Shown: one piece after another, positions 926 through 19,802 of the stretch
Layout: every line of letters starts with the position of its first letter
Position numbering within the stretch: the stretch's first letter is position 1
DNA from: Pseudomonas aeruginosa
GTDB lineage: Bacteria > Pseudomonadota > Gammaproteobacteria > Pseudomonadales > Pseudomonadaceae
Direction of reading: 5' to 3'
NCBI RefSeq assembly: GCF_001457615.1
Contig: NZ_LN831024.1
Location: forward strand, 2,160,001 to 2,192,000
Length of the DNA: 32,000 bases
Program-made: the position numbers and the translations under genes
Notes under the pieces: model-generated
Database searches by the model: none
The model's input: the letters and a program-made list of their open reading frames with translations, nothing else
Told to the model about the DNA's origin: nothing

Positions 926-3618
<2,693 letters not shown>

Positions 3619-3651
3619 AATCCCGCTGATATTCGACTGGCAGGAACCTGC

Positions 3652-4008
3652 ATGAGTTTGCCACCCAATCTGGGGCCGCGTAACGGCATCCTGTCCTTGA
3701 CCATCAAGGACAAGTCCGTGCTGTACGCCGCCTACATGCCGTTCATCAGGAACGGCGGGCTGTTCATTCCCACCAACAAGAACTACAAGCTCGGCGACGA
3801 AGTCTTCATGCTGCTCAACCTGATGGAAGAGCCGGAGAAGATCCCGGTGGCCGGCAAGGTCGTCTGGATCACCCCGAAGGGCGCCCAGGGCAACCGTGCG
3901 GCGGGCATCGGCGTGCAGTTCAACGACGGTGACAACACCGCCCGCAACAAGATCGAAACCTACCTGGCCGGGGCGCTGAAGTCGGACCGGCCGACCCACA
4001 CGATGTAA
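3652..4008 (+). CDS. pilZ: type IV pilus assembly protein PilZ
   Basis: 118-aa PilZ-domain protein (GGLFIPT...GIGVQF) directly downstream of holB, as I recall for P. aeruginosa. Confidence 0.85.
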   Translation: MSLPPNLGPRNGILSLTIKDKSVLYAAYMPFIRNGGLFIPTNKNYKLGDEVFMLLNLMEEPEKIPVAGKVVWITPKGAQGNRAAGIGVQFNDGDNTARNKIETYLAGALKSDRPTHTM

Positions 4009-5024: not shown

Positions 5025-6158
5025 CTAGGTGCCTGCGACCTGGCGCAAGATCGCCAGGGTATCGTCGATCACCGTCGAACTCGTGTAGAAGTGCGGGGAA
5101 AAACGGATACCTCCGCCACGCTGGGCGCAAATGACCCGTTCCTGGCGAAGCGTTTCGAAGAGTGTCCGATTGTCCTGGCCGTCCAGGCTGAAGGTCAGGA
5201 TGCCCGCGCGTCGGCTCGGGTTCCGCGGGCTGTGCAGGCGTACCCCGGGAATTCCCGACAGACCGTCCTGTAGCCACTGGACGCGCTCGGCGATGTCTCT
5301 GCCGACCCGCTCCATGCCGACCTCCTCCAACAGCCCCAGGCTGGCCTCCAGGGCCATCGCGCCGAGCATGTTCGGGCTGCCGCATTCGAAGCGCCGGGCG
5401 CTGCGCGCCGGCCGCCAGTCGCGACGCTCGTAATCGAGGGCATGTTCCAGCATGTGCCAGCCATATTCGTGCAGCGCCAGGCGCTCGCGCTGCTCGGGAT
5501 GGCAATAGAAGACGCCCAGCCCTTCGGGGCCGAGCATCCACTTGTGCCCATCGGCCATGGCGAAGGCACAATCGTAGGCCTGTACGTCGAAGGGCAGGGC
5601 GCCGAGCTGCTGGATCGCGTCGATGCAGAACAGCACCCCGCGGCGGCGACATCCCGCGCCGATGCGCTCCAGGTCAAGGCGCAGGCCGCTGGCGTACTGC
5701 ACCGCGCTGATCGACAGCAGGCGGGTGCGCGGGCCGCAGGCGGCGAGCAGGGCGCTCTCGGGATCGTCGCCGGCGAGACCGACCTCGACCACTTCGACGC
5801 CGCGCGGGCGCAAGGCTTCCCAGACCACTCTATTGGAGGGGAACTCCTCGTTGCCGATGACGACCTGGTCGCCCTCTCGCCAATCCAGGCCGAAGGCTAC
5901 GAAGGAAAGCGCCTCGGAGGTGTTCTTGACCAGGGCGAGGTCGCTGCCGGCGCGCGCATTGAGCAGTCGGGCAAGGCGCTCGCGCAGGCGATGTTCTATC
6001 TTCAGCCATTCCGGATAGTCGCTGGCGCCGTGGGCGACGTTCTCCCGGGCGAAGGCGCTCACCGCGTCGGCGGCGCGTCTAGGCCAGGGTGCGACCGCTG
6101 CGTGGTTGAGGTAGCGCAGACCGTTGGTCTGGTCGAATTCGTCCTGGTAACAATTCAT
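5025..6158 (-). CDS. class V aminotransferase / cysteine-desulfurase-like PLP enzyme
   Basis: Part of the 454-aa minus-strand ORF. I chose the internal ATG at 6158 (MNCYQDEF...). YLNHAAVAPWP at the N-terminus and a DGHKW-type PLP-lysine region (MADGHKWMLGPEG) fit this family. The upstream extension overlaps the divergent TetR gene, so it was rejected. Confidence 0.8.
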   Translation of the reverse strand: MNCYQDEFDQTNGLRYLNHAAVAPWPRRAADAVSAFARENVAHGASDYPEWLKIEHRLRERLARLLNARAGSDLALVKNTSEALSFVAFGLDWREGDQVVIGNEEFPSNRVVWEALRPRGVEVVEVGLAGDDPESALLAACGPRTRLLSISAVQYASGLRLDLERIGAGCRRRGVLFCIDAIQQLGALPFDVQAYDCAFAMADGHKWMLGPEGLGVFYCHPEQRERLALHEYGWHMLEHALDYERRDWRPARSARRFECGSPNMLGAMALEASLGLLEEVGMERVGRDIAERVQWLQDGLSGIPGVRLHSPRNPSRRAGILTFSLDGQDNRTLFETLRQERVICAQRGGGIRFSPHFYTSSTVIDDTLAILRQVAGT

Positions 6159-6243
6159 CGTCGGATGTTCCGTGCATTTTCGTGCTGAATAGGCATAATA
6201 CGCGGCTTCGATTTTTGACTCATTTTGACCTGACAGTCTTTTT

Positions 6244-6882
6244 ATGCAGAAAGAGCCTCGCAAAGTTCGTGAATTTCGTCGCCGTGAACAGGAGATTCTC
6301 GATACCGCCCTCAAGCTGTTCCTCGAACAGGGGGAAGACAGCGTAACGGTCGAGATGATCGCGGATGCCGTCGGCATCGGCAAAGGCACGATCTACAAGC
6401 ACTTCAAGTCCAAGGCGGAGATCTACCTGCGCCTGATGCTGGACTACGAGCGCGATCTCGCCGCCCTGTTCCATTCCGAAGACGTAGCCCGCGACAAGGA
6501 AGCCCTGTCGCGCGCCTACTTCGAGTTCCGCATGCGCGATCCGCAGCGCTACCGCCTGTTCGACCGCCTGGAAGAGAAGGTGGTGAAGACCAGCCAGGTG
6601 CCGGAGATGGTCGAGGAGCTGCACAAGATCCGCGCCTCCAACTTCGAACGCCTGACCCAGCTGATCAAGGAGCGTATCGCCGACGGCAAGCTGGAGAACG
6701 TTCCGCCGTACTTCCATTATTGCGCTGCCTGGGCGTTGGTGCATGGCGCCGTGGCGCTGTACCACTCGCCGTTCTGGCGCGAGGTGCTGGAAGACCAGGA
6801 AGGTTTCTTCCACTTCCTGATGGATATCGGCGTGCGCATGGGCAACAAGCGCAAGCGCGAAGGCGACGCTCCCAGCGCCTGA
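6244..6882 (+). CDS. TetR-family transcriptional regulator
   Basis: 212 aa. N-terminal TetR HTH (VTVEMIADAVGIGKGTIYKHFKSK). Divergent from the aminotransferase. Confidence 0.85.
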   Translation: MQKEPRKVREFRRREQEILDTALKLFLEQGEDSVTVEMIADAVGIGKGTIYKHFKSKAEIYLRLMLDYERDLAALFHSEDVARDKEALSRAYFEFRMRDPQRYRLFDRLEEKVVKTSQVPEMVEELHKIRASNFERLTQLIKERIADGKLENVPPYFHYCAAWALVHGAVALYHSPFWREVLEDQEGFFHFLMDIGVRMGNKRKREGDAPSA

Positions 6883-7031
6883 TGCCTGTGGTGCCGGGAC
6901 GCAGTCACTGCGCCCCGCGCACTCTTTGCCGGCAGGGATATACTCGTCGCCCATCGATCCGCCGGCGGGACGTCGGCTGCCCATTTCCGGCGAATCCGCC
7001 GGCGGCTCCACGTTCGTTCAGGAGTTCTCCG

Positions 7032-7157
7032 ATGAGTGTCCGTGAATTCCCTATCCACTACATCGAACCGGTGTTCCGGCCCCCGAGCGAGGCGCATTCG
7101 CTGATCCTCCCGGTGACCAATGGCTGTTCCTGGAACAAATGCGGCTTTTGCGATTAG
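7032..7157 (+). pseudogene. radical-SAM protein, N-terminal fragment (41 codons) truncated by the insertion
   Basis: MSVREFPIHYIEPVFRPPSEAHSLILPVTNGCSWNKCGFCD*. The Cys cluster CSWNKCGFC is followed at once by a TAG that lies in inserted DNA. The matching C-terminal fragment is at 18329-19105. Confidence 0.8.
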
Positions 7158-7869
7158 TTATCCCTAAGTGAGTCCCTAGAAATCATCGAAAAACTCTAGT
7201 TCCCTGCGGTTTGGAGGTTAATTCTCGACTCCATGGCCTGTTGGTCTGCTCTCCCCCCTGCAGGAGTTACCCCAGAGAAGTACACGTTTTCCCAAACCGC
7301 ATAAGCACAAAGTCATAGCGTAGGAATCATGTCGCTCAGGTCGCATCAGGGCCGGCCAGGAGCGACAGGCCTCATGGGCAGTTTCGCCTGACAGTGGTGA
7401 CGACAGCGGTTGTCCTCTCGCTGACCATCTGATCCGGCTTGCGCATAATTAGTGCAGCCTACGTAAATGCGAATTGCTTTGTGCTGACCTGGGCAGAAAT
7501 CTTGGGTCGCCGCTCTGCTGGGTGGTAGTAACTGCATTGAGTTGAGTTGCGGCGCCAGGGGCGTCCTCATCATTCTGGTTGAGTCACTAACCAGAGTTCA
7601 CGTTATGCTCACTCCACTCAACCTCTTCGATGTCATTAAATACACCGACTCATCACACTTCGCCGTTCAGAGGGCGTGGTGTTTTCATGGCTTTCGAGAG
7701 GGTGCTCTACAAAAGCTATCGTCCCCCGTTCAAGGTTTGGGGGAGTGATCCATGCCAACAGTCCTTGAGTCGTCCCACCAAGAGTTCAGATCCTTCGTGG
7801 TCGATGCGACTGGCATACAGCATGTCCTGCCGGTCATCGTTGACCTGCCCCCAGTTTTAGTACCGCTGC

Positions 7870-8711
7870 CTAGTTAGTAGGCCCTGGGGTTGATATTAAT
7901 TTTTCCTGCTTCAGTTGCTGCTGGCGAGTTCGCCAACTTGCAGCAAATTCTGCCGGGGTGAGATTGCCAATCGCGCTGTGCGGTCGGTGTTCGTTGTAAT
8001 CCCGCCGCCAGGCCGCAATGCGGATTCTCGCTTCGGCCAGCGAACAGAACCAGTGCTCATTGAGGCATTCGTCCCGGAACTTACCGTTGAACGACTCGAT
8101 GAAGGCATTCTGCGTGGGCTTACCAGGCTGAGCTTGATGTCGCGCTGATAGGCCCATTGATCGAGTGCCTTGCCGGTGAACTCGGGCCCCTGGTCGGTGC
8201 GGATCGCTTTCGGGTAGCCGCGAAACCGCGCCATCTCGTCCAGCGCCCGTGTGACACGAAAGCCGCTGATACCGTGCTCCACCAGGATGCCGACCGACTC
8301 CTTGGTGAAGTCATCGACCACCGTCAGGCATTTGATCCGCCGCCCGGTGCTCAGTGCATCGAAGACGAAGTCCATCGACCAGACCTGGTTTGGTGCGCTC
8401 GGCAAACTCAGACGTTCGCGCTCCACCGCGACGCCATGGCGGCGGCGCCGCCGTTTCACCATCAAGCCGGCAGCGCGGTACAGGCGATAGATCCGCTTGT
8501 GGTTGACCTGCACGCCAGCACGCCGCAGCAGGATGTGCAGGCGGCGATAGCCAAAGCGCCGGCGCTCTTGGGCCAGTTCCACCAGTTGGGCTTGCAGCTC
8601 GGTGTTTTGCACACTGGCTCGCGGCTGGTAGCGCAACACCGAGCGGGACAGCCCGATCAACTGACAGGCACGACGCTCGGAGATGCCGGTTCGCGCCTGC
8701 ATCTCCTGCAC
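7870..8711 (-). pseudogene. IS3-family transposase OrfB (DDE integrase core) with an extra frame break
   Basis: Two overlapping minus-strand ORFs. 7911-8711 carries ...WSMDF...TDQGPEF...AYQRDIKLSL and then nonsense. 7870-8157 carries QPGKPTQNAFIESFNGKFRDECLNEHWF.... The continuous sequence expected in intact elements needs a frame change near 8118-8135, upstream of the catalytic E region. Confidence 0.7.
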
Positions 8712-8734
8712 CGCCTCCCGCCGTGCTGTCGGGC

Positions 8735-8998
8735 TTACCCTTTTCCCCGGGCGACCACTTTCAGCGACTCGATGTCGAGGTGGGCCTCGGCGAGCAACTT
8801 CTTCAATCGGCTGTTTTCCAGTTCAAGATCCTTCAACCGTTTGGCGTCCGCCACGGTCATACCGCCAAACTTGGCCCGCCAGGTGTAGAACGAGGCATCA
8901 CTGAAGCCGTGTCGGCGACACAGTTCCTTCACCGGCACACCGGCCTCCGCCTGCTTGAGGAAGTCGAGAATCTGCTCTTCGGTAAAACGCTTTTTCAC
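8735..8998 (-). CDS. IS3-family transposase OrfA (HTH)
   Basis: 87 aa, MKKRFTEEQILDFLKQAEAGVPVKELCRRHGFSDASFYTWRAKFGGM.... This matches IS407-group OrfA proteins as I recall them. Ends at GGAAAAGGGTAA, where a -1 slip would fuse it to orfB (...RVSPTARREAVQEMQ...). Confidence 0.85.
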   Translation of the reverse strand: MKKRFTEEQILDFLKQAEAGVPVKELCRRHGFSDASFYTWRAKFGGMTVADAKRLKDLELENSRLKKLLAEAHLDIESLKVVARGKG

Positions 8999-9787
8999 TG
9001 CCGTCTCCTGCTCGGAAAACGGACTCTACTAAGTTTGACGTGGTACTGAAATCGGGGGGGCAGGTCATTCGTGCGCAACGTCTTCGCAGAGTTGGGGTCG
9101 CGTGCAGCGGTCGATAAAGCGCTCTCCAGGCTAGTGCAGTTAGGTTGCCTGGAGCGTGTAGCCCGCGGTGTCTATATGCGCCCCAAGCTAAGCGAGTACA
9201 CCAGCCAGCTGGTAAAGCCTAGTCCGCTAGCAATCATGAATGTCCTTTCCAAGGCGAATGGAGAGACGATTCAGATACATGGAGCTGAGGCCGTGCGCAG
9301 GTTGGGGCTCAGCACTCAGATGCAGGTGGTGCCGGTCTACTACACCAGCGGCAGAACCCGAGAAATCAAGGCTGGCAATGCTGTGGTTCGTCTCAATCAT
9401 GTTTCCAGTGATCGCTTGCAGCATGCCGGGAACAAGGTAGGCCTGGCGCTCACGGCGCTTTACTACCTCGGTAAAGATGGGGCGTGTCCCCACGCGCTTT
9501 CCAAAATAGCCGATACCCTGAGCCCGGACGAATTGACCACGCTGCTTGCCTGCAGAATGCCCAAATGGATGCGGGCGGCATTGGCTCCTTTCGCTGAAGA
9601 AGCATCACTGGCGGTGTCTTCGGGGCGCTAGCCAAAGCTTCCAGCACACCAGACCGAATGGATCGCAATGTTGGGTTGTGACCATTTGACTCAAGCCGGG
9701 TGCAACTTCATCGAAGCTATGTATTTGTGCTGTTAAGTTAAATGCAAAGGCAGTACATTTACGTGACTTTTTTGACGAGGCCCTGCC

Positions 9788-9976
9788 ATGTCACGCCTTA
9801 AGGACGAAACCCTTTCGATCCGCACCTCCGCTGAGATCAAGCAGCTTTTGCGTATGGCGGCTGATCGCGAACGCCGCTCGGTGGCATCGATGGTCGAGAT
9901 TTTGGTGCTGGAGTACGCGCGCAATCATGACTTGAGTCTGAACCACCCAGGCGGGGAGCCCAAGACGAATGCTTGA
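9788..9976 (+). CDS. ribbon-helix-helix (CopG/Arc/MetJ-like) small DNA-binding protein
   Basis: 62 aa. LSIRTSAEIKQLLRMAADRERRSVASMVEILVLEYA fits the strand-helix-helix pattern of RHH antitoxins/repressors. Ends 71 nt before the hsdR start. Confidence 0.6.
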   Translation: MSRLKDETLSIRTSAEIKQLLRMAADRERRSVASMVEILVLEYARNHDLSLNHPGGEPKTNA

Positions 9977-10047
9977 TGTGGCTCTGATTCGCCACAGGTA
10001 GCCGCCTATCCGCCACATCGAAGCCTCTATGACGGCAGGACTGATTC

Positions 10048-13000
10048 ATGACCATCACCGAACACCAGATCGAGCAGGACCTGCTCGCCAAGCTCGGCGA
10101 CCTCAAGTACAGCTATCGCCCCGAGATTCGCGACCGCGCCGGGCTCGAAGCCAACTTTCGCGAAAAGTTCCAGCAGCTCAACCGCGTCAACCTCACCGAT
10201 GAGGAGTTTGCGCGCCTGCTGGAAGAGATTGTTACACCCGACGTGTTCACCGCCGCGCAAACGCTGCGTACACGCAATAGCTTCATCCGCGAAGATGGCA
10301 CGCCGCTGAACTACACCCTCGTCAACATCGAAGACTGGTGCAAGAACAGTTTCGAGGTTGTAAACCAGCTGCGGATCAACACCGACAACAGCCACCACCG
10401 TTTTGACGTCATCCTGCTCATCAACGGTGTGCCGGTCGTGCAGATCGAACTAAAGACGCTGGGCATCAACCCGCGCCGCGCCATCGAGCAGATCGTCGAG
10501 TACAAGAACGACCCTGGTAACGGCTTCACCCGCACGCTGTTGTGCTTCATGCAGGTGTTTATCGTCAGCAACCGCGTTTCAACCTACTACTTCGCCAACA
10601 ACAACTCTCGGCACTTCAGTTTCAACGCCGATGAGCGCTTCCTACCCATTTACCAGTTTGCTGCGCTGGATAACACCAGGATCACCGGGCTGGATGATTT
10701 TGCCGATGTCTTCCTGCCCAAGTGCACGCTCGGCCAGATGATCAGCCGTTACATGGTGCTGGTCGCCAGCGAGCAGAAATTGCTCATGATGCGGCCCTAC
10801 CAGATCTATGCCGTCAAAAACATTGTCAAGTGCATCGAAGAAAACAGTGGCAACGGCTATATCTGGCACACCACCGGCAGCGGCAAGACGCTCACCAGCT
10901 TCAAGGCCTCCACCCTGCTCAAGGCCAATCCGAACATCGAAAAGTGCCTGTTCGTGGTCGATCGCAAAGACCTCGACCGGCAAACCCGCGAGGAATTCAA
11001 CCGTTTCCAAGAAGGCTGCGTCGAAAGCAACACCAACACCAGCGAGCTCGTCCGTCGTATGCTGTCGGACGATGCGGCCGACAAGGTTATCGTCTGCACC
11101 ATTCAGAAGCTTGGCCTGGCACTGGACGAGGGCAGCAGACGCAACAAAAGCCGCGAGAAGCGTGGACTTGCAACTTATGCCGAGCAGCTCGAAGCGCTGC
11201 GCGATAAGCGTATCGTCTTCATCTTTGACGAATGCCACCGTTCGCAATTCGGCGATAACCATCAGGCCATTAAGACGTTCTTCCCCAAGGCCCAGCTTTT
11301 TGGCTTTACCGGCACGCCAATCTTCGAGGCCAATGCCAGCATTAAGCAGATCAGTGGCGAAGAGAAGACGCTAAAGACCACGCAGGATTTGTTCCAGCAA
11401 TGTCTGCACGAATACACCATTAGCGATGCCATCGACGATCGCAATGTTTTGAAGTTCCACGTCGACTACTACAAACCCGACGGGAAGAACCCACCCAAAC
11501 CCGGTGAAACCCTGGCCAAGCGCGCCGTCGTTGACGCCATCCTCGCCAAGCACGATGCCGCTACGGGGGGGCGCAAGTTCAACGCGATTCTGGCCACAGC
11601 TTCCATCAATGATGCCATCGCCTATCACGCACTATTTGAAGAGGCTCAGGCCGAGAAACTGCAGGCCAACCCCGAGTTTGTGCCGCTAAATATCGCCGCC
11701 GTGTTCTCTCCGCCGGGCGACGTGAGCGCCGATGTACGTCAGTTGCAGGAAGACCTGCCCACCGAGCTGGAAGACAACCAGCAGGAGACGGACGCCAAGA
11801 AGGCGGCGCTGCAAGCGATCATTGCCCGCTATAACGCCCGCTTCGATACGAACCACCGCATTGAGGAATTCGACCTCTACTACCAGGACGTGCAGCAGCG
11901 CATCAAGGATCAGCAATGGCCGGATGCCGACCTGCGCAAAGCCAACCCCAGGGCCCCGCAACACAAGATCGACATCACCATCGTCGTCGACATGCTGCTC
12001 ACCGGCTTCGACAGCAAGTACCTCAACACGCTTTACGTCGACAAGAATCTCAAACACCACGGCCTTATTCAGGCCTTCAGCCGTACCAACCGCGTGCTGA
12101 ATGATACCAAGCCCTTTGGCCATATCCTCGACTTCCGTGGGCAGCAAGACGCGGTGGACGCTGCCATCGCGCTTTTCTCCGGCGCGAAGGCCGATGAGGC
12201 GCGCACAATCTGGTTGGTGGACAAAGCCCCTGCGGTTATCGAAAAGCTCCAAGAAGCCGCACTCGGCCTGCACAGCTTCATGGAGGCATACGGGCTTTCA
12301 GGCAAACCCGAGGAGATTGCCACGCTCAAGGGCGACGAAGCCCGGATCGGCTTTGTCGAAGCCTTCAAGAAGGTGCAGAAGCTGCAAACCCAGCTCGACC
12401 AGTACACCGACCTTACCCCCGAGCAGGAAGCCTCTATCCAGGCCATCCTGCCGCCGGACGAACTCAACGCCTTCCGTGGCCAGTACCTGGAGACGGCCAG
12501 ACGCCTGCGCGACGAGCGAGCCAAGCCTGGCGATGCCAAGCGCGAGGAACTGGAGCAGCTCGATTTCGAGTTCGTGCTCTTCGCTTCCGCCACCATCGAT
12601 TACGACTACATCATGAGACTGATCGCCGACTTCTCCACCAAGAAGCCTGGCAAAGCCACCATGAGCCGCGAACAGCTGGCCAGCCTGATCGCGAGCGACG
12701 CCAAATTCATCGACGAGCGCGATGACATCACCGAATACGTGATGAGCCTCAAGGCCGGCGAGGGCCTGGACGAACGCGCCATTCGCATGGGCTACCAGCA
12801 ATTCAAGGCGGTAAAAGCCTCCCGCGAACTGACCGAGCTAGCGGCCAAGCACGGACTGCCCACTGCAGCACTACAAAGTTTTATGGATGAGGTACTGGAG
12901 CGCCGCATCTTCGACGGCGAACAGCTAACCGAATTGCTCGCCCCGCTGGAACTGGGTTGGAAGGCGCGTACGCAGAAGGAATTGGCCTTGATGAGCGAGC

Positions 13001-13068
13001 TGGCACCGATGCTGAAGAAGCGAGCCGGCGGCCGGGATATCTCAGGCCTCCAGGCGTATGAGGATTGA
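10048..13068 (+). CDS. hsdR: type I restriction endonuclease R subunit (type IC / EcoR124I-like architecture)
   Basis: 1006 aa. SD AGGA 7 nt upstream. PD-(D/E)xK nuclease region DVILLINGVPVVQIELK. SF2 motor motifs WHTTGSGKTLTSF, FIFDECHRSQ and QAFSRTNR. The region around the nuclease motif (...FVISN...YFAN) resembles EcoR124I HsdR as I remember it. Confidence 0.92.
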   Translation: MTITEHQIEQDLLAKLGDLKYSYRPEIRDRAGLEANFREKFQQLNRVNLTDEEFARLLEEIVTPDVFTAAQTLRTRNSFIREDGTPLNYTLVNIEDWCKNSFEVVNQLRINTDNSHHRFDVILLINGVPVVQIELKTLGINPRRAIEQIVEYKNDPGNGFTRTLLCFMQVFIVSNRVSTYYFANNNSRHFSFNADERFLPIYQFAALDNTRITGLDDFADVFLPKCTLGQMISRYMVLVASEQKLLMMRPYQIYAVKNIVKCIEENSGNGYIWHTTGSGKTLTSFKASTLLKANPNIEKCLFVVDRKDLDRQTREEFNRFQEGCVESNTNTSELVRRMLSDDAADKVIVCTIQKLGLALDEGSRRNKSREKRGLATYAEQLEALRDKRIVFIFDECHRSQFGDNHQAIKTFFPKAQLFGFTGTPIFEANASIKQISGEEKTLKTTQDLFQQCLHEYTISDAIDDRNVLKFHVDYYKPDGKNPPKPGETLAKRAVVDAILAKHDAATGGRKFNAILATASINDAIAYHALFEEAQAEKLQANPEFVPLNIAAVFSPPGDVSADVRQLQEDLPTELEDNQQETDAKKAALQAIIARYNARFDTNHRIEEFDLYYQDVQQRIKDQQWPDADLRKANPRAPQHKIDITIVVDMLLTGFDSKYLNTLYVDKNLKHHGLIQAFSRTNRVLNDTKPFGHILDFRGQQDAVDAAIALFSGAKADEARTIWLVDKAPAVIEKLQEAALGLHSFMEAYGLSGKPEEIATLKGDEARIGFVEAFKKVQKLQTQLDQYTDLTPEQEASIQAILPPDELNAFRGQYLETARRLRDERAKPGDAKREELEQLDFEFVLFASATIDYDYIMRLIADFSTKKPGKATMSREQLASLIASDAKFIDERDDITEYVMSLKAGEGLDERAIRMGYQQFKAVKASRELTELAAKHGLPTAALQSFMDEVLERRIFDGEQLTELLAPLELGWKARTQKELALMSELAPMLKKRAGGRDISGLQAYED

Positions 13069-13071
13069 TCA

Positions 13072-14382
13072 ATGGTGAAGGCGGGCAATAAAGCGATGGT
13101 ACCTCGGTTGCGGTTTCCGGAGTTTCAACACGAGGGAGACTGGACGACAGTAAAGCTTGGGGCTGTTGCGACGATTAGCACAGAAAAAGTTGGCAATAAC
13201 ATTTGCGTGCCGATGAGCATCACATCCGGCGTGGGGCTTGTAAGTCAAGAGGACAAGTTTGGCCGTGTAATCGCTGGCGACTCATACAAAAGCTACTTGC
13301 TCTTGAAGCCAAACGATTTTGCTTACAACAAGAGCGCTACCAAGGAATTTCCTGAAGGTTTTCTCACTCTGTACTCGGGTACGGAGCTGGCTGCGGTTCC
13401 GAACAGTATATTCACTTGCTTTCGGATCAACGGCGCGTCGCCAAATACGCGGTTTCTGAACTATCAATTCTCAGACAACCTGCACGGGCGTTGGCTGCGC
13501 AAGTTCATTCAGGTTGGGGCTCGGGCGCATGGTTCGTTGAGTGTCAGTGATGGCGACTTGCTGGCGCTGCCCATTCCCGTTCCGGCGGGCACAACATCGG
13601 TCGCAGAACAACAAAAAATCGCCGACTGCCTCACCTCTCTGGACGAGCTGATTACAGCGCAGGAGCGAAAAGTCGAGGCATTAAAGACTTACAAGCGCGG
13701 CCTGATGCAGCAGCTCTTCCCCCGCGAAGGTGAAACCCTTCCCCGTATCCGCTTTCCCGAGTTCCGTGGTGCGCCAGAGTGGCAAGCCAAGCCATTAGGA
13801 GAGCTTGTGCAACTGCAGTCTGGATTTGCATTCTCAAGCAGTTTCTTCTCGGACTCAGGCCAGAAGTTGGTGACCCCAAAGAACTTTACAAAGACGGGTT
13901 TCGGAAATTTTGAGAGTTCGATCTCGAAATATACAACAGAGGAAGTGTCAGAAAAATACCAGTGTCGCCCAGGTGATTTACTTGTGCTTCTGACAGATTT
14001 AACTCCTACTTGCGCACTTTTAGGTCAGCCGATAGAAGTGACTGAGGCGGACGGCAACCTGCTACTCAATCAGCGAGTGGTGAAGATTGAACCAATATCA
14101 GCGCGGGTTAATAAGAGTTTTCTAAAGCAATTTCTGCTAAGCGACTCTTACCGCAAGGTTATAGTAGGAACTGCAACCGGGACTACCGTTAAGCATAGCT
14201 CTAATAAGGTTCTGGAGGGAATAGAGTTCGTTTTCCCTCAAGAAGAGGAGCAGCTCTGCATTGCTACTTGCCTTTCCTCCTTAGATGTGCAGATTTTCGT
14301 CGAATATAAAGCAATCGAACTAATAAAAACTCATAAGGCGGGACTCGTGCAGCAGTTGTTTCCGTCTCAAGGGGCGGCTTGA
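13072..14382 (+). CDS. hsdS: type I restriction-modification specificity subunit
   Basis: 436 aa with two target-recognition halves, each preceded by PR(L/I)RFPEF and followed by a conserved helix ending GLMQQLFP / GLVQQLFP. Starts 3 nt after the hsdR stop. Confidence 0.9.
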   Translation: MVKAGNKAMVPRLRFPEFQHEGDWTTVKLGAVATISTEKVGNNICVPMSITSGVGLVSQEDKFGRVIAGDSYKSYLLLKPNDFAYNKSATKEFPEGFLTLYSGTELAAVPNSIFTCFRINGASPNTRFLNYQFSDNLHGRWLRKFIQVGARAHGSLSVSDGDLLALPIPVPAGTTSVAEQQKIADCLTSLDELITAQERKVEALKTYKRGLMQQLFPREGETLPRIRFPEFRGAPEWQAKPLGELVQLQSGFAFSSSFFSDSGQKLVTPKNFTKTGFGNFESSISKYTTEEVSEKYQCRPGDLLVLLTDLTPTCALLGQPIEVTEADGNLLLNQRVVKIEPISARVNKSFLKQFLLSDSYRKVIVGTATGTTVKHSSNKVLEGIEFVFPQEEEQLCIATCLSSLDVQIFVEYKAIELIKTHKAGLVQQLFPSQGAA

Positions 14383-14384
14383 CA

Positions 14385-15524
14385 ATGGCTGTTATATTGT
14401 TTTCAGATTTGTCGGCACTGGCACAATACTTACGTGAGAACCTTGAATTAAAGAAGTTCTCGCTTATTTATGCCTACAATGGGACGGGAAAAACAAGGCT
14501 GTCTGGAGAATTCAAGGAGCAGGGTAAGAAGTTCGGCGAGGACCGCGAGATCACGCAGCGTGATACGCTTTATTTCAATGCGTTCACCGAAGATCTTTTT
14601 AACTGGGATAACGACCTCAAAAACGACCGAAAGCGAGTGCTGAAAATCAACGGCGATTCTCGTTTCTTCTCAGGGCTAGAAACGCAGGAAATGGATAATC
14701 GTATCCGCCCGCTGCTAAACCGCTACGCAGACTTTGACTTTCGCATCGACACCACCGAGTGGGAGGTGAGCTTCTCCCGAGAAGTGGAGATCGACGGTAA
14801 GAGGACAACGGTAGAAGACATCAAGGTCTCACGTGGCGAAGAGAACATCTTCATCTGGTGTTTCTTTCTCGCCATAGTGCAGCTCGCGCTCGATGGTGAC
14901 GAGGCCTACGAGTGGGTGAAGTACGTCTACATCGACGATCCGATTTCATCTCTTGACGAGAACAATGCGATCGCTGTGGCCCACCACTTGGCCCAATTAC
15001 TGATGGCCACCGATAAAGGGCCGCGCGTGGTCGTGTCCACGCATCATGTACTTTTCTTTAACGTGCTATGCAATGAGTTCAAGGGCAAGGCCTACAAGCA
15101 TCTGCTGAAGAGGGGGGCGGCGCTGGGTAGCTATTCGCTAGTGGATACCTCGGCCAGGCCCTTTCTTCACCATCTATCAAACTTAGTTGAGCTGTATGAC
15201 GCGCAGGCCAGTGGTTCCCTTTACACCCACCACTTCAACATGATGCGGCGAGTCATGGAGCAGACCGCAAATTTCTTGGGGCTGGACGACTGGAAGGCCT
15301 GCATTGCCGCGCCGGATGGTGCAGACAAGGCACTGCACAAGCGCTTCATTGATCTGATGAGCCATGGCGACTATTCGCTCTATGAGCCTCGGGAAATGAT
15401 GGAGGAGAACAAAGCGTACTTCCGGATTATCTTTCGGCAGTTCATTACCGGGCACCCCTTCAATCGCGCACTGTTTCCGAACCTTTTCAATATAGCGGGC
15501 GCGACCCCGGATGTTGACGCATGA
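14385..15524 (+). CDS. prrC: PrrC-like AAA_13-family ATPase, candidate anticodon nuclease
   Basis: ATG 14385 lies 2 nt after the hsdS stop (the ORF track starts at TTG 14379). Walker A YAYNGTGKT, ABC-signature-like VSRGEENIF, Walker B YVYIDDPISSLD, then VVVSTHH. The C-terminal region has RRVME (R-x3-E) and SHGDY about 35-40 residues later, reminiscent of the reported PrrC Arg/Glu/His triad. It is embedded in a type IC R-M operon, as E. coli prrC is. Confidence 0.6.
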   Translation: MAVILFSDLSALAQYLRENLELKKFSLIYAYNGTGKTRLSGEFKEQGKKFGEDREITQRDTLYFNAFTEDLFNWDNDLKNDRKRVLKINGDSRFFSGLETQEMDNRIRPLLNRYADFDFRIDTTEWEVSFSREVEIDGKRTTVEDIKVSRGEENIFIWCFFLAIVQLALDGDEAYEWVKYVYIDDPISSLDENNAIAVAHHLAQLLMATDKGPRVVVSTHHVLFFNVLCNEFKGKAYKHLLKRGAALGSYSLVDTSARPFLHHLSNLVELYDAQASGSLYTHHFNMMRRVMEQTANFLGLDDWKACIAAPDGADKALHKRFIDLMSHGDYSLYEPREMMEENKAYFRIIFRQFITGHPFNRALFPNLFNIAGATPDVDA

Positions 15525-15934
15525 GAGGACTCATCCTCTACACCACTGGCGACGAATGCAGCCAGGTCAAGCTGCGAGCCAAGGATCAGCCGGTCTGGCT
15601 CTCTCAGCGTGAAATGGCAGAGGTGTTCGACGTCAGTACCGATAAAGTCAGCCTGCACCTGAAGAATATCTTTCACGATGGCGAGTTGAGCCGTGAGGCG
15701 ATCCCCGTGAGCTTCTGGCGCCAGAACGTGGACCAGATCATCGGTAGCAACGGTTTTCCGCTGCTCACCCATGCCGGCAAGGTGAGCTACGCGCAAATGG
15801 AACGTGCCACCATTGCGCTTTATCTCGATTATGACCAACGCCGCAAACAGAAGGAGGCACGTCAGGCCGACGCGCAGGACGAAGCTGAACCCAAGGCGCT
15901 GGAAAACACACTCAAGAAACGGCCCAAACCATGA
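15521..15934 (+). CDS. short RhuM-family-like protein (N- and C-terminal RhuM segments, central core absent)
   Basis: 137 aa with ATGA overlaps at both ends. The N-terminus ILYTTGDECSQVKLRAKDQPVWLSQREMAEVFDVSTDKVSLHLKNIFHDGEL matches the RhuM N-terminal pattern (IxYQTxDGxxxIxVRLxxETVWLTQxQMAELF...HIKNIFxEGEL). The tail (LLTHAGKVSYAQMERATIALYLDYDQRRK) resembles the RhuM C-terminal tail. Full-length RhuM proteins are roughly 300+ aa, from memory. Confidence 0.5.
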   Translation: MRGLILYTTGDECSQVKLRAKDQPVWLSQREMAEVFDVSTDKVSLHLKNIFHDGELSREAIPVSFWRQNVDQIIGSNGFPLLTHAGKVSYAQMERATIALYLDYDQRRKQKEARQADAQDEAEPKALENTLKKRPKP

Positions 15935-17583
15935 CCGAACAAGACCAGAAACAGCTGGGCAAAACCCTATGGGCGATTGCCGACCAATTACGTGGTTCGA
16001 TGAACGCCGACGATTTTCGCGATTACATGCTGTCCTTCCTCTTCCTGCGCTACCTCTCGGACAACTACGAACAGGCTGCGAAGCGGGAGCTGGGGCCCGA
16101 TTATCCGGACGTGGCGCCGGACGTGATGGAGCAGACCGAAGCCACGACACCGCTGCAAATCTGGTATGAAGAGAACGCCAGCGACGTGGTGGCGTTCGAG
16201 AAGCAGATGCGCCGCAAGGTGCACTATGTAATCGAGCCAGAGTACCTATGGGGCAACATCGTTCAACTGGCCAAGACCCAGAGCGACAAGCTGCTCGATA
16301 CCTTGCAACGGGGCTTCAAGTACATCGAGAACGAGTCCTTCCAAAGTAACTTCCAAGGATTGTTCTCGGAAATCAACCTCGCGTCCGACAAGCTCGGTCG
16401 CAAGTACGAGGATCGCAATGCCAAGCTGTGTTCGATCCTCTCGGAGCTGGCGCGCGGCATGTCGCTGTTCTCCACCGACACCGACACGTTGGGCGACGCT
16501 TATGAGTACCTGATCGGCCAATTCGCCGCAGGCTCGGGCAAGAAGGCGGGCGAGTTCTACACCCCGCAGCAGGTCTCGAACATTCTTTCGGCCATCGTCA
16601 CGCTCGACGGCCAGGCGCCCGAGACCGGTCTCCGCAAAAAGCTGGAAAGCGTGTTCGACTTCGCCTGTGGCTCGGGCTCGCTGCTGCTGAACATCCGGCA
16701 CCGCATGAAGGACGCGGGTGGTAGCATCGGCAAGATCTACGGGCAGGAATACAACATCACTACCTACAACCTGGCGCGCATGAACATGTTGCTGCACGGG
16801 GTGAAGGACACCGAGTTCGAGATTTACCACGGCGACACGCTGACCAATGCCTGGGACTTCCTGCGCGAGACCAATCCGGCGAAGAAACCGCAGTTTGACG
16901 CGGTGGTGGCCAATCCGCCGTTCAGCTATCGCTGGGATCCGAGCGATGCCATCAGCGAAGACATGCGCTTCAAGAACCACGGCGTGGCACCCAAGAGTGC
17001 GGCGGACTTCGCCTTCCTGCTGCACGGGCTGCACTACCTCAAAGACGATGGCGTGATGGCCATCATCCTGCCGCACGGCGTGCTGTTCCGGGGTGGTGCG
17101 GAAGAGCGTATTCGCCGCAAACTGCTGCAGGATGGACACATCGATACCGTGATCGGGCTGCCGGCCAATCTGTTTTATTCAACAGGCATCCCGGTTTGTA
17201 TTCTCGTGCTGAAGAAGTGCAAAAGATCGGACGATGTGCTGTTTATCAACGCGGCCGAGCACTTCGAGAAGGGTAGGAGGCAGAACCAGCTAGCAGACCG
17301 ACATATCGACAAGATTATCGAGACCTACGAGCAACGCCCAGCGGAAGTACCGCGCTATGCGCGACGGGTAAGCATGCAGGAGATCGAGAAGAACGACTTT
17401 AACCTGAATATCTCGCGCTACGTCAGCACGGCGGTGGCCGATGAAGAAATAGACCTGACGGCCGTGCATGCCGAGCTTGTGGCACTGGATCAGAGGATCA
17501 AGACGGCCACCGATAAACACAATGAATTCCTCAAGGAACTTGGGCTGCCGCTGCTACCCTACGGTTCTGAGGTATCACGGTAA
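15931..17583 (+). CDS. hsdM: type I restriction-modification N6-adenine DNA methyltransferase subunit
   Basis: 550 aa. HsdM N-domain (LWAIADQLRG...FLFLRYLSD), FYTPQQV, AdoMet motif FDFACGSGSLLL and catalytic NPPF (VVANPPFSYRW). Confidence 0.92.
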   Translation: MTEQDQKQLGKTLWAIADQLRGSMNADDFRDYMLSFLFLRYLSDNYEQAAKRELGPDYPDVAPDVMEQTEATTPLQIWYEENASDVVAFEKQMRRKVHYVIEPEYLWGNIVQLAKTQSDKLLDTLQRGFKYIENESFQSNFQGLFSEINLASDKLGRKYEDRNAKLCSILSELARGMSLFSTDTDTLGDAYEYLIGQFAAGSGKKAGEFYTPQQVSNILSAIVTLDGQAPETGLRKKLESVFDFACGSGSLLLNIRHRMKDAGGSIGKIYGQEYNITTYNLARMNMLLHGVKDTEFEIYHGDTLTNAWDFLRETNPAKKPQFDAVVANPPFSYRWDPSDAISEDMRFKNHGVAPKSAADFAFLLHGLHYLKDDGVMAIILPHGVLFRGGAEERIRRKLLQDGHIDTVIGLPANLFYSTGIPVCILVLKKCKRSDDVLFINAAEHFEKGRRQNQLADRHIDKIIETYEQRPAEVPRYARRVSMQEIEKNDFNLNISRYVSTAVADEEIDLTAVHAELVALDQRIKTATDKHNEFLKELGLPLLPYGSEVSR

Positions 17584-17833
17584 GAAACGCCTATGGCAAT
17601 TTGGTTGGTCCCTGTGAGCTCGCACGGCGGGTTCAAATCCCTATTAGAATTTGAATCCAATACACCATCGTTCCACCGCCAAATAATATCGCGGAAAATC
17701 AGTAAATAATTCTCCGCACTTTTTACGTTCGAGCAGGCGCACAACGTACCGGTCGGCGTTTGTTACGGGCTTGAGGTCAAAGCATCGCATAGGCTTTCGA
17801 CCTCGGTGGGAAGCTTTCAATGAGGTCGCAGTT

Positions 17834-18115
17834 ATGGAACAGGCCGAATCTGTCACTGATATCTTTTGCGATGTTTGTGGCAACAGCATGCGTGTTGAAG
17901 GGTATGGGTTGCAATTCGGAACCCTTCGCGCCAGTTGGGAACTCGGCTCGGCTCATGCTGGCGAGCGTTATGAAGTCCATCTGTGCGAACTCTGCTTTTT
18001 CAGGACCCTGGCAGGCTTGAAGCGCGAGCGAATGGTGAACTCGATGTTCAGTGCCAGCAACGAGGACTTGAGCCGTTTCGGTCTTATCGCGCGCGATGAT
18101 TCTTCCATCGTTTGA
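17834..18115 (+). CDS. hypothetical small protein with CxxC...CxxC (zinc-ribbon-like)
   Basis: ATG 17834 is preceded by GAGG 8 nt upstream (the ORF track starts at TTG 17771). 93 aa containing CDVCG and, about 45 residues on, CELCF. I recognise no family. Confidence 0.4.
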   Translation: MEQAESVTDIFCDVCGNSMRVEGYGLQFGTLRASWELGSAHAGERYEVHLCELCFFRTLAGLKRERMVNSMFSASNEDLSRFGLIARDDSSIV

Positions 18116-18136
18116 GTAAGCTCAGCGCTCTCATCT

Positions 18137-18146
18137 CCCCCCCCCC
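18137..18146. repeat. C10 homopolymer tract
   Basis: Ten consecutive C read directly from the sequence, 21 nt after the stop of the zinc-ribbon-like ORF, in the AT-rich right arm of the insertion. Confidence 0.95.
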
Positions 18147-18328
18147 TCATGTCTCATGTGCCGTTCATTTTTGTACAAGCGGAGTGTGGTTTGCTCAAGG
18201 CTCTGATAGTGCTTTTAGGAGTGCACAAAACATTGATGCTCAAAAGAAGTCCAATAGTAAGGTCATAAAAATCAATTACTTGCTTTTCATGTGCTTCTTT
18301 TTTGTATGATGGCAGGATAACTACCAAT

Positions 18329-19105
18329 GAGATGTATACCCAGCCGCAAAAGAAATTTCGCGCCCGCGACGAGAACGAGGTACTGGAGGAGATCCGCCGC
18401 TGCGGCGAGCGCCTGATCGTCAAGCGGGTGTTTCTCGCCGATGGCGACGCCCTGGTATTGCCGACCCGCCGGCTGCTCGCGGTGCTGCAGGCGATTCGCC
18501 AGCACTTGCCGGAGGTGGAGCGGGTATCCAGCTACTGCCTGCCGCGCAACCTGCGCAGGAAGTCGGTCGACGAGTTGCGCGAACTGGCCGACGCCGGGCT
18601 GCGAATGGCCTATGTCGGCGCCGAGTCCGGCGACGACGAAGTGCTGGCGCGGGTCAACAAGGGCGAGACCTATTCCTCTACCCTGGATGCGCTGGAAAAG
18701 CTTGGCGAGGCGGGGATCAGTCGTTCGGTGATGATCCTCAACGGTCTGGGCGGAATGACCCTGAGCGCGCAGCACGCGGACAACTCCGCGCGCCTGATGA
18801 ACGCCGCCCAGCCGGAGTACCTGTCGACCCTGGTGGTGAGTTTCCCTACCGGCGAGCAGCGTTTCCGTGCTGGCTTCGCCGATTTCGAGGCGCTGGATCG
18901 GCGTGCCCTGTTCGTCGAGGTCGAACGCCTGTTGCAGGGTTTGGAGCTCGAAGACACGGTATTTCGCAGCGACCACGCTTCCAACTATCTGGTGCTCAAG
19001 GGCGAACTGGGTGCCGACAAGGCGCGCCTGCTGGCCGAGGTCCGCCAGGCCATCGAGCAGCCGCAGCACGCTGCCCTGCGCCAGGAGTGGCAGCGTGGCC
19101 TGTGA
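18329..19105 (+). pseudogene. radical-SAM protein, C-terminal fragment (continuation of 7032-7153)
   Basis: Reading frame from GAG 18329: EMYTQPQKKFRARDENEVLEEIRRCGE...VFLADGDALVLP...AYVGAESGDDEVL, which is the radical-SAM core after the Cys cluster. The upstream codons MYDGRITTN come from inserted DNA. Confidence 0.8.
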
Positions 19106-19169
19106 TGGCGCGGAAGCTGCATCGGCTCGTCATTCGCCGGTTTTCCGACGCCGGCAGGGGAGATGACCG

Positions 19170-19802
19170 ATGTTGCACCTGTTCCGTATCGCCCTGGCGA
19201 TGCTCCTCCTGGGCAGCCTGTCCGCCTGCATGAAGCCCAGCGACCTGGCCGACGGCGCCGACTACTACCTGCGCGACGCCGGGGTGCTCGATCACAGCGC
19301 CAGCCAGCGCAGCAACAACCGGCGGATCCAGGCCGACTCCTTCATCTACATCGGCCAGGGCCCGTTCGTGCCGCCGGGCTACCGGTACGCGCGGCCGAAC
19401 GTGGTGGCCGAGCAGGCCTTCGAAGGTTTCGTCGAGTATTTCCCGCTGGTGCGCCGCGCCAAGGCGCCGCTCGGCCTGGACGACGCGATGCGCGAGGCGC
19501 GTGCCGCCGGCGCTCACTACCTGCTGTACTGCCGTTTCGCCCGGGGCGACAACAGGATCGGCAACTGGGAGGAGTGGGAAGACGAAGAGGAACTCGGCCG
19601 GGTCGGGCGCGATCGCAGTGTCATCCAGGTCATGCTGATCGAGACCAGCACCCGTTTCCTGGTGGACAGCGCGACCATCCGCAGCCGCGGCGGTTTCCTG
19701 ACGTTCTACGACGCCACCCCGGAAGACCTGCTGCGTCCCCCGCTGGAGCAATACGCCCAGGAATTGCTGGGCCTGAACAGTCGAGGAACAGGCTATGAGT
19801 GA
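19170..19802 (+). CDS. lipoprotein (DUF4823-like)
   Basis: 210 aa. Signal peptide with lipobox LLLGSLSAC. The family name is from memory of the syntenic PAO1 gene. Confidence 0.7.
   Translation: MLHLFRIALAMLLLGSLSACMKPSDLADGADYYLRDAGVLDHSASQRSNNRRIQADSFIYIGQGPFVPPGYRYARPNVVAEQAFEGFVEYFPLVRRAKAPLGLDDAMREARAAGAHYLLYCRFARGDNRIGNWEEWEDEEELGRVGRDRSVIQVMLIETSTRFLVDSATIRSRGGFLTFYDATPEDLLRPPLEQYAQELLGLNSRGTGYE

Follow-up and report, generated by a model that had tools for sequence, protein, structure and literature searches.

The stretch of DNA analysed here (the window; 32,000 nucleotides of Pseudomonas aeruginosa, RefSeq assembly GCF_001457615.1, contig NZ_LN831024.1, positions 2,160,001 to 2,192,000 of the forward strand) raises the question of how an islet of defence-type genes that has no intact recombinase gene of its own came to lie inside a radical S-adenosylmethionine (radical-SAM) gene. 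The initial annotation of this DNA, made from the sequence alone, left three answers side by side: a decayed element, an element of an unfamiliar type, or a recombinase that acted in trans. Here, we have compared the window with related loci (denoted by L numbers) and conclude that the islet is very probably a decayed, non-autonomous deletion derivative of a GMT (Gamma-Mobile-Trio) island. The islet has no recombinase because an insertion sequence (IS) has replaced ∼7.5 kb of the island that encode gmtY, gmtZ and gmtX. Decay is supported by a stub of gmtY that survives in the window and by full-length copies that carry gmtYZX. The type is not unfamiliar, as GMT islands have been described and this insertion site is listed in Dataset S2 of the defining preprint (bioRxiv 10.1101/2023.03.28.534373), and a recombinase in trans is not needed for the arrival of the islet. 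Both the element class and the radical-SAM site are already known, and the islet is an ordinary decayed member of that class, with a modest mechanistic lead.

Insertion site and junctions

The initial annotation had placed a precise insertion in the codons of the radical-SAM Cys cluster, and we found that the intact P. aeruginosa allele indeed reads straight across the junction. The empty site is represented by L006 (positions 3001-3897; protein P0001, 298 aa, 574 member sequences), whose DNA, ...GGCTTTTGCGAGATGTATACC, aligns to both junctions of the window. When 7032-7153 is joined to 18331 onward, the resulting 298-aa protein shows 100% identity over 100% of its length to intact P. aeruginosa radical-SAM proteins. 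The dinucleotide GA is found at both junctions (7152-7153 and 18329-18330). Joining 7153 to 18331 restores the reading frame, whereas the join from 7153 to 18329 is out of frame. One copy of GA has to be dropped to restore the frame, and the inserted DNA is therefore 7154-18330 (equivalently 7152-18328), which is 11,177 bp long and lies inside the part of the gene that codes for CxxxCxxC. With a slash at the junction, the left side reads ...AAATGCGGCTTTTGCGA/TTAGTTATCCCTAAG... (in a shorter form, ...TTTTGCGA/TTAGTTATCC...) and the right side reads ...GGCAGGATAACTACCAAT/GAGATGTATACC (in a shorter form, ...GGATAACTACCAAT/GAGATGTATACC).

The insert is richer in AT than its flanks, as had been annotated, with a GC content of 55.4% versus 66.7% in the rest of the window. 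The flanking genes are ordinary core genes (TetR, DUF4823, DUF1285, ETF-QO, etfBA and others). No tRNA gene was found in the window, and no Rfam family was matched in 6500-19500 at a permissive threshold.

The empty site of L006 contains an inverted repeat, CTTTTGCG-agatgtatacccagc-CGCAAAAG, which may be functional or may be a coincidence of the coding sequence. The B' side of the insertion site is GATGTATACC. The two halves of the repeat (window 7141-7153 and 18331-18354) are made of TTT (Phe) and CAA (Gln), which are rare codons in P. aeruginosa. The left side has TTC in the flanks of L028-L030, and the right side has CAG in L016 (10471-10500). TTC on the left and CAG on the right would keep the repeat paired if both were present in one genome, and covariation is a possibility. 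In two further P. aeruginosa loci (L036 and L038; ∼2930-2950, equivalent to window 7080-7084), the radical-SAM gene is uninterrupted at the insertion site and has a C5-to-C4 change in a cytosine run, so that the gene is called only from an internal Met; the cause is either a frameshift or a sequencing error. If the frameshift is real, the target radical-SAM gene would be dispensable.

A full-length sibling and the GMT islands

A search with the full-length AbiEi protein revealed a complete island at the same base in P. aeruginosa GCA_009727235.1 (L020). Window 6001-7845 corresponds to L020 717-2567 at 95.7% identity, and window 9058-13126 and 15520-19610 match L020 at 94.5-95.2%, with window 9058 onward corresponding to L020 10048 onward. 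Exactly at the position of the IS in the window, L020 has ∼7.5 kb of extra sequence. This stretch encodes a 459-aa tyrosine recombinase, a 1,172-aa protein with the Pfam domains INT_rpt, Integrase_2 and Phage_integrase, and a 211-aa protein, followed by small genes and a helix-turn-helix (HTH) gene. By the curated cut-offs of NCBIfam, these proteins of L020 are GmtY (NF040693; 494 bits, cut-off 340), GmtZ (629 bits, cut-off 600) and GmtX (190 bits, cut-off 40).

GMT islands were defined by Mahata et al. (bioRxiv 10.1101/2023.03.28.534373), with VPaI-6 of Vibrio parahaemolyticus as one example. The 5' border of such an island is defined by the gmt genes, and defence and type VI secretion system genes abound in its cargo. 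Insertion is site-specific, between or within genes, into a 'naive insertion site' that usually has an inverted repeat. For two Vibrio GMT islands, circle formation and insertion into a site on a plasmid were demonstrated; VPaI-6 needed each of the three gmt genes, and its original copy remained after transfer. In Dataset S2 of the same work, P. aeruginosa H27930 and CFSAN084950 are entered as 'Intragenic, radical SAM protein'; their insertion site is given as CCTGGAACAAATGCGGCTTTTGCGAGATGTATACCCAGCCGCAAAAGAA and their repeat as CTTTTGCG...CGCAAAAG, which is also the repeat in the empty site of L006. In these islands gmtY starts 599-605 bp from the border; the corresponding distance in the window is 598 bp.

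The full-length siblings of the islet are like the GMT islands in that they have gmtY-gmtZ-gmtX at the 5' border, defence cargo and a site-specific, intragenic insertion. The site repeat, CTTTTGCG-N15-CGCAAAAG, is a further likeness, and closely related GmtY proteins use the same site across species. Unlike the GMT islands, the window copy is a fossil: only codons 1-29 of gmtY are left, gmtZ and gmtX are absent, and the trio does not stand together at the 5' border. The window copy is a remnant, not a functional member of the class. A recombinase-less defence islet inside a gene can be a GMT fossil, and searches based on gmt genes would miss such fossils.

The nested IS and the deletion

The true ends of the IS are TGACCTGCCCCC...GGGGGCAGGTCA, flanked by CGT and TTC, with no target duplication. 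Its left flank is codon 30 of gmtY and its right flank is codon ∼20 of abiEi. Window 7752-7840, immediately left of the IS, translates to MPTVLESSHQEFRSFVVDATGIQHVLPVI, and GmtY of L020 starts with MPTILESSHQEFRSFVVDATGQQHVLPVIV. The abiEi-type gene is full length (206 aa) in L015, L016 and L020 and is preceded by an HTH gene in L015 and L016, and the window sequence left of the IS is unlike the region that precedes abiEi in L015 and L016. Therefore, the IS marks a deletion and not a simple insertion. A simple insertion of the IS with a TCG target duplication, in which 7752-7840 would be the DUF6088 N-terminus, was considered and is ruled out by L015, L016 and L020. No intact recombinase gene was found in 7154-18330 by open reading frame (ORF) and Pfam scans. 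The initial annotation had correctly seen that the islet has no working recombinase and that the IS is defective; it had not recognised 7752-7840 as what is left of the 5' end of a recombinase gene.

Compared with a 98.7%-identical plasmid copy of ISPa32, the IS has a 10-bp deletion in orfB after 8130 and an extra G in the G-run of the right inverted repeat (9054). The transposase gene is broken because of the 10 bp lost after 8130. Other copies of the island erode as well: an IS5-like transposase lies between abiEi and the 62-aa ORF in L016 (977-1957), and in L015 (10313-13872) a 961-aa ORF, Tn3-family transposase-like by its size and position, cuts off the right end at the equivalent of window 18125.

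Recurrent use of one nucleotide

The same insertion nucleotide, after TGC/TGT-GA, is used in the window and in L016, L020, L028, L029, L030, L032, L034 and L037. This base-identical junction is found in seven or more island lineages, which come from five or more species and differ in their cargo. In three other Pseudomonas genomes (L028-L030), GmtY proteins of 92-93% identity are encoded behind a stub of 40-41 codons of the orthologous radical-SAM gene, and the same arrangement is found in L032 and L033 of P. aeruginosa with GmtY of 84% identity; L034 and L037 supply further right junctions at the radical-SAM site. L028-L030 and L032 contain gmt-like trios, each with a Phage_integrase gene, an INT_rpt/Integrase_2 gene and a 211-aa gene, and two of these loci have an additional 118-aa call. 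The cargo of the siblings includes SIR2, OLD/UvrD-type, SRAP/polymerase and GmrSD-type genes.

A scan of species-representative genomes for the 93-aa ORF near the right end of the islet led to L015 (Ectopseudomonas oleovorans) and L016 (Pseudomonas sp. CAU 1711). The flank of L016 is ∼87% identical to that of P. aeruginosa and differs from the eighth base past the junction, while the island is 93-97% identical. The island therefore reached the two species in separate events and did not travel with its flanks. The annotation had proposed to look for the island ends at other loci, and the right end was found against a different flank, GTGTGATGCT, unrelated to the radical-SAM gene, in L027 (metagenome contig Ga0153917_1000102). 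This shows that the island uses at least one other site besides the radical-SAM gene. Exact look-ups of HsdM and of the 93-aa protein found the deleted islet only at the radical-SAM locus, in more than 100 blocks of the assembly collection; the islet is therefore a stable, fixed type I restriction-modification (R-M)/PrrC module in a P. aeruginosa lineage.

Ends of the island and the 6-bp spacers

An inverted 9-mer at the two ends had been noticed in the initial annotation, and this observation gained weight from our comparison. There are exactly two copies of the 9-mer TAGTTATCC in the 32 kb, one at 7155-7163 (+) and the other at 18315-18323 (−). In a simulation, a perfect inverted repeat of at least 9 nt between the first and the last 20 nt of the insert had p = 0.0006, and both terminal arms are conserved in every related copy examined. 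When the ends are joined as a circle, they read GGATAACTAC-N6-TTAGTTATCC, with 9 of 10 arm positions complementary, and the attB halves are intact on both sides. A further copy of the motif had been annotated at 7197-7205. That copy is not conserved, as L020 has CAGTCTCTT there; it is the copy AGTTACCCC at 7265-7273 that is invariant instead, and this may be a putative second recombinase-binding site.

The six bases to the left of TTAGTTA are always local target sequence, namely TTGCGA in P. aeruginosa (window, L020 and L032), CTGCGA in L028 and L029, and CTGTGA in L030. The right 6-mer is variable: it is CAATGA in the window, CATTGA in L016, GCGAGA in L020 and also in L034, a different island, GCACGC in L037 (with the arm GGTAACTAC), and CATTGA in L027, where the unrelated flank follows. 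The annotation had noted that only GA is found on both sides, which is correct. Its conclusion that any target duplication is 2 bp or less was too narrow, as the junctions have 6-bp spacers, TTGCGA (left) and CAATGA (right), that differ except for the GA with which both end. That insertion requires GA is plausible, though not proven: most right spacers end in GA, and that of L037 does not. Comparing many islands at a single site places the ends of a GMT clade to the base and brings out a variable 6-bp right spacer. The preprint version that we consulted (bioRxiv 10.1101/2023.03.28.534373) is silent on the terminal inverted arms and on the variable right spacer, both of which are evident here.

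A BLAST search of plasmids with the end regions joined as a circle returned homologues of the 93-aa ORF alone; the end sequences themselves were not found. In a scan of viral contigs the right end was not found, and the joint GGATAACTA-N8-TAGTTATCC had one match inside a phage ORF, which we judged to be chance.

Alternative explanations

Some of our observations weigh against deriving the islet from a GMT island. The window copy has only a 29-codon stub of gmtY, and its class is assigned through collinearity with its siblings. The mobility of its GMT clade is extrapolated from two Vibrio islands. The deletion may have come about either by recombination between two IS copies or in one step, by an IS-associated deletion. 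Moreover, among the copies compared, the left junctions of L016 and L027 and the right junctions of L028-L030 and L032 lie outside the regions in view.

It could be argued that the islet never encoded an enzyme of its own and was inserted by a recombinase in trans, as a recombinase-less hitch-hiker. There is no intact recombinase gene in 7154-18330, and with both ends intact, mobilisation in trans is conceivable. We consider this origin very unlikely, however, and it is contradicted by the stub and by L020: the IS is abutted by the 5' stub of gmtY on one side and by truncated abiEi on the other, full-length collinear gmtYZX copies lie at the same site, and all copies with the exact cargo protein are at one locus, with no sign of ongoing movement. 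Even harder to credit is insertion by a large serine recombinase (TnpX/TndX-like or of the phage type) that crosses over at a 2-bp GA core. A core of this kind is found in Tn4451 and Tn5397, coding genes are frequent targets of serine integrases, and GA alone is common to both junctions of the islet. Against this, the full-length copies have genes for two tyrosine recombinases, a serine recombinase gene was seen in none of L020, L028-L030 and L032, the arms are centred on the 6-bp spacer and not on GA, and the right 6-mer of L037, GCACGC, does not end in GA. We give just as little credence to illegitimate recombination or end-joining at a chance break, with the 9-mer and GA as coincidences. 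Junction homology is very low and the window copy has no recombinase, as such an event would have it, but the base-identical junction recurs in the island lineages and species counted above with different cargo, which already refutes this origin; in addition, the terminal motifs are conserved, and the probability of a 9-mer by chance is ∼0.0006.

More weight should be given to the way in which the window strain itself obtained the islet. Another P. aeruginosa strain could have been the donor of the islet, with the deletion already in it, and homologous recombination in the conserved flanks the means of transfer, which we regard as unlikely but by no means far-fetched. The flanks are core genes, the deleted islet is present in the more than 100 assembly-collection blocks, and flank exchange has been suggested as a potential route for another P. 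aeruginosa hotspot, cDHS1 (PMC10250203). Such an exchange would concern the spread of the islet and not its identity, and it is compatible with descent from a GMT island.

Other element types were dropped. For an IS110/IS1111-like element, no DEDD transposase gene was found in the window or in the full-length copies and no Rfam family matched in the region. An integron cassette at a secondary site and Xer-dependent integration were likewise discarded.

Resemblance to SEs, Tn554 and GInts

The ends of the GMT copies compared here resemble those of strand-biased circularizing elements (SEs) and of Tn554 of Staphylococcus. As described in PMC10214605, SEs and Tn554 have the target 6 bp at attL and a 6-bp footprint at attR; attB is split between attL and attR, and joining the ends produces imperfect inverted repeats that are 6 bp apart. 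We found the same organization at the islet, where the split attB is kept and imperfect inverted repeats surround a 6-bp spacer. Like SEs, the islet has the target 6 bp at attL, a 6-mer at attR that differs from the target and may be a footprint, and inverted repeats that are exactly 6 bp apart, and for SEs as for GMT islands, transfer is reported to be copy-out-like or replicative. Unlike GMT islands, which have three core genes, SEs have four (intA, tfp, intB and srap). Pfam and NCBIfam scans of the Gmt proteins matched only Gmt and generic tyrosine-recombinase families and no SE-specific family.

Tn554 (tnpA, tnpB and tnpC) is like the GMT islands in its three-gene module of a small and a large tyrosine recombinase and a small accessory protein, in making no target duplication and in its high site specificity; it is unlike them in coming from a different phylum. 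Tn554 carries 6 bp of the left flank of the donor site to its right end at the new site (summarised in PMC10214605). A tblastn search of 72,556 plasmids with GmtZ gave GMT/VPA1269-type matches only and no Staphylococcus match, and it included no direct comparison with Tn554 or SE proteins. In the literature searched, we found no paper that links GMT islands with Tn554 or SEs. GATGTA, the core hexamer of Tn554, also occurs in the target; we treat this as a coincidence and do not rely on it.

GInts (ginABCD; PMC5385486) are likewise site-specific islands of Gammaproteobacteria, with a recombinase operon at one end and cargo in the middle of the island. They differ in having four genes, three of which are integrase-like, and a possible GInt/SE-type module, found in L021 and L022, does not flank the islet. 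A short AT-rich 3' end is reportedly another feature of GInts.

Tentatively, we propose that GMT islands may move by the Tn554/SE route, a suggestion on which we are almost evenly divided and lean slightly towards doubt. A circle would be copied out in which the inverted arms (GGATAACTAC and TTAGTTATCC, together with the second left-end copy 110 bp further in) enclose 6 bp that stem from the left flank of the previous site; little or no homology in the spacer would be needed, and a footprint would be left at the right junction. The origin of the right 6-mer in the left flank of the donor is what we infer from the comparison of junction sequences. If the proposal is true, the right-hand 6-mers record the previous address of each island, GMT islands are linked mechanistically to Tn554 and SEs, and a remnant without gmt genes and with both ends intact could be re-mobilised in trans by a cognate trio. 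The recombination chemistry of GMT islands is not described in the defining paper, and our result provides a testable, Tn554/SE-like model of transposition.

Proposed history of the islet

In the history that we propose for the GMT derivative in the window, the order of events and the details of strand exchange are inferred around features that we observed directly, namely the junctions, the full-length collinearity, the gmtY stub, the IS without target duplication, the conserved ends and the variable right 6-mer. Circle formation, the need for three proteins and replicative transfer would be as in the Vibrio experiments of the literature, from which we take them.

The ancestor would have been ∼18-19 kb long and would have consisted of a 598-bp leader, gmtY, gmtZ, gmtX, a few small genes, an HTH gene, abiEi, the type I R-M/PrrC operon and an AT-rich 3' end. 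Its gmtY would encode a tyrosine recombinase and its gmtZ a large, Integrase_2-type tyrosine recombinase. The circular form, GGATAACTAC-N6-TTAGTTATCC with inverted arms around a 6-bp spacer, would have been integrated at one fixed nucleotide of the radical-SAM gene through site-specific recombination catalysed by GmtYZX. On integration, the target TTGCGA would have come to lie against the left arm and the island spacer CAATGA against the right arm. Later, an ISPa32-like IS would have replaced ∼7.5 kb, from codon 30 of gmtY to codon ∼20 of abiEi, most likely because two IS copies recombined or through a deletion associated with the IS. With gmtY, gmtZ and gmtX gone as mobility genes, the island would have been immobilised at the site, and the IS would afterwards have lost 10 bp from its transposase gene. 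The islet, now locked, would be inherited vertically in a P. aeruginosa lineage.

Features and cargo of the islet

The features of the islet are listed in Table 1. The cargo is of the defence type, in agreement with the initial annotation, and consists of type I R-M genes (hsdR, hsdS and hsdM), prrC, a RhuM-like fragment and an AbiEi fragment. The islet apparently still supplies an R-M and PrrC defence module whose genes look intact.

Table 1. Coordinates of the islet features and of the interrupted radical-SAM gene in the window
Feature	Position	Strand	Remarks
Radical-SAM gene, 5' fragment	7032..7153	+	codons 1-40 plus 2 nt, ending ...CGFC + GA; collinear with intact P0001/L006
Target-derived 6 bp TTGCGA at attL	7148..7153	.	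identical to empty site
Left terminal motif T-TAGTTATCC-C, one inverted-repeat arm	7154..7164	+	conserved in L020, L028, L029; variant TTAGTTACC in L030, L032
Non-coding leader, left end to gmtY start codon	7154..7751	+	598 bp; 95.7% identical to L020
Internal direct copy AGTTACCCC	7265..7273	+	110 bp inside left end; invariant in 5/5 aligned left ends (alignment A2), including divergent L030; also in L032
gmtY stub	7752..7840	+	codons 1-29 plus 2 nt, MPTVLESSHQEFRSFVVDATGIQHVLPVI...; matches N-terminus of L020 GmtY
ISPa32-like IS3-family element	7841..9067	-	replaces ∼7.5 kb of island; transposase gene broken
DUF6088/AbiEi-type gene, 3' part	9068..9631	+	first ∼19 codons missing; Pfam DUF6088, PADLOC AbiEi
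62-aa ORF	9788..9976	+	gene call in all related copies; without family match
hsdR, type I restriction subunit	10048..13068	+	
hsdS, specificity subunit	13072..14382	+	divergent among copies
prrC-like anticodon nuclease	14379..15524	+	PADLOC PrrC 444.7 bits; Pfam AAA_13
RhuM-like / PDC-S05 fragment, 137 aa	15521..15934	+	
hsdM, type I methyltransferase	15931..17583	+	
93-aa ORF with CxxC...CxxC	17834..18115	+	no family assignment; homologues in other accessory regions
AT-rich non-coding 3' end of island	18116..18314	+	∼200 bp; highly conserved among window, L016, L020, L027
Right terminal motif GGATAACTAC, second inverted-repeat arm	18315..18324	+	
6-bp spacer / 'footprint' CAATGA at attR	18325..18330	.	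not target sequence except final GA
Radical-SAM gene, 3' part	18331..19105	+	third base of codon 41 to stop codon

In the R-M operon (10048-17583), the genes are in the order hsdR-hsdS-prrC-rhuM fragment-hsdM on one strand, with overlapping stops and starts; the usual type I order is M-S-(prrC)-R, that is the reverse of the order in the window. The hsdS-prrC segment (∼13126-15520) is the divergent part of copies that are otherwise 93-95% identical. The 62-aa ORF looks, by eye, like a ribbon-helix-helix protein. Just 3' of the 93-aa ORF there is a cytosine run (18136-18160). In the window this run has one more base than in L020 and L027, and ∼9 bases that these two lack come after it; L016 is without the entire run at the equivalent of 18136-18160 (alignment A3).

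Nearly the same cargo block, ∼92% identical and with abiEi, the 62-aa ORF, hsdR, hsdS, a prrC-like gene and hsdM, is found in L021 and L022 (604-18565 versus window 9058-17736). It lies there at a different site, between hrpB and an SBP_bac_3 gene, and is carried by a four-gene module (490/645/682/145 aa) of which only the first gene has a weak tyrosine-recombinase match. L023-L025 also share the small genes that adjoin gmtX in L020. GMT islands and a four-gene, possibly GInt- or SE-like, type of island seem to trade cargo with each other. On plasmid pF061_1 (L009; NZ_CP115216.1, 3895-12319), an AbiEi-type homologue (75% DNA identity, in the opposite orientation) and a homologue of the 93-aa ORF (78%) bracket an unrelated cargo of 7.5 kb, which includes a 4.4-kb gene for an ATP-binding protein and a BPSL0761-family gene. 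The AbiEi-type and 93-aa small genes recur as a frame around variable defence cargo.

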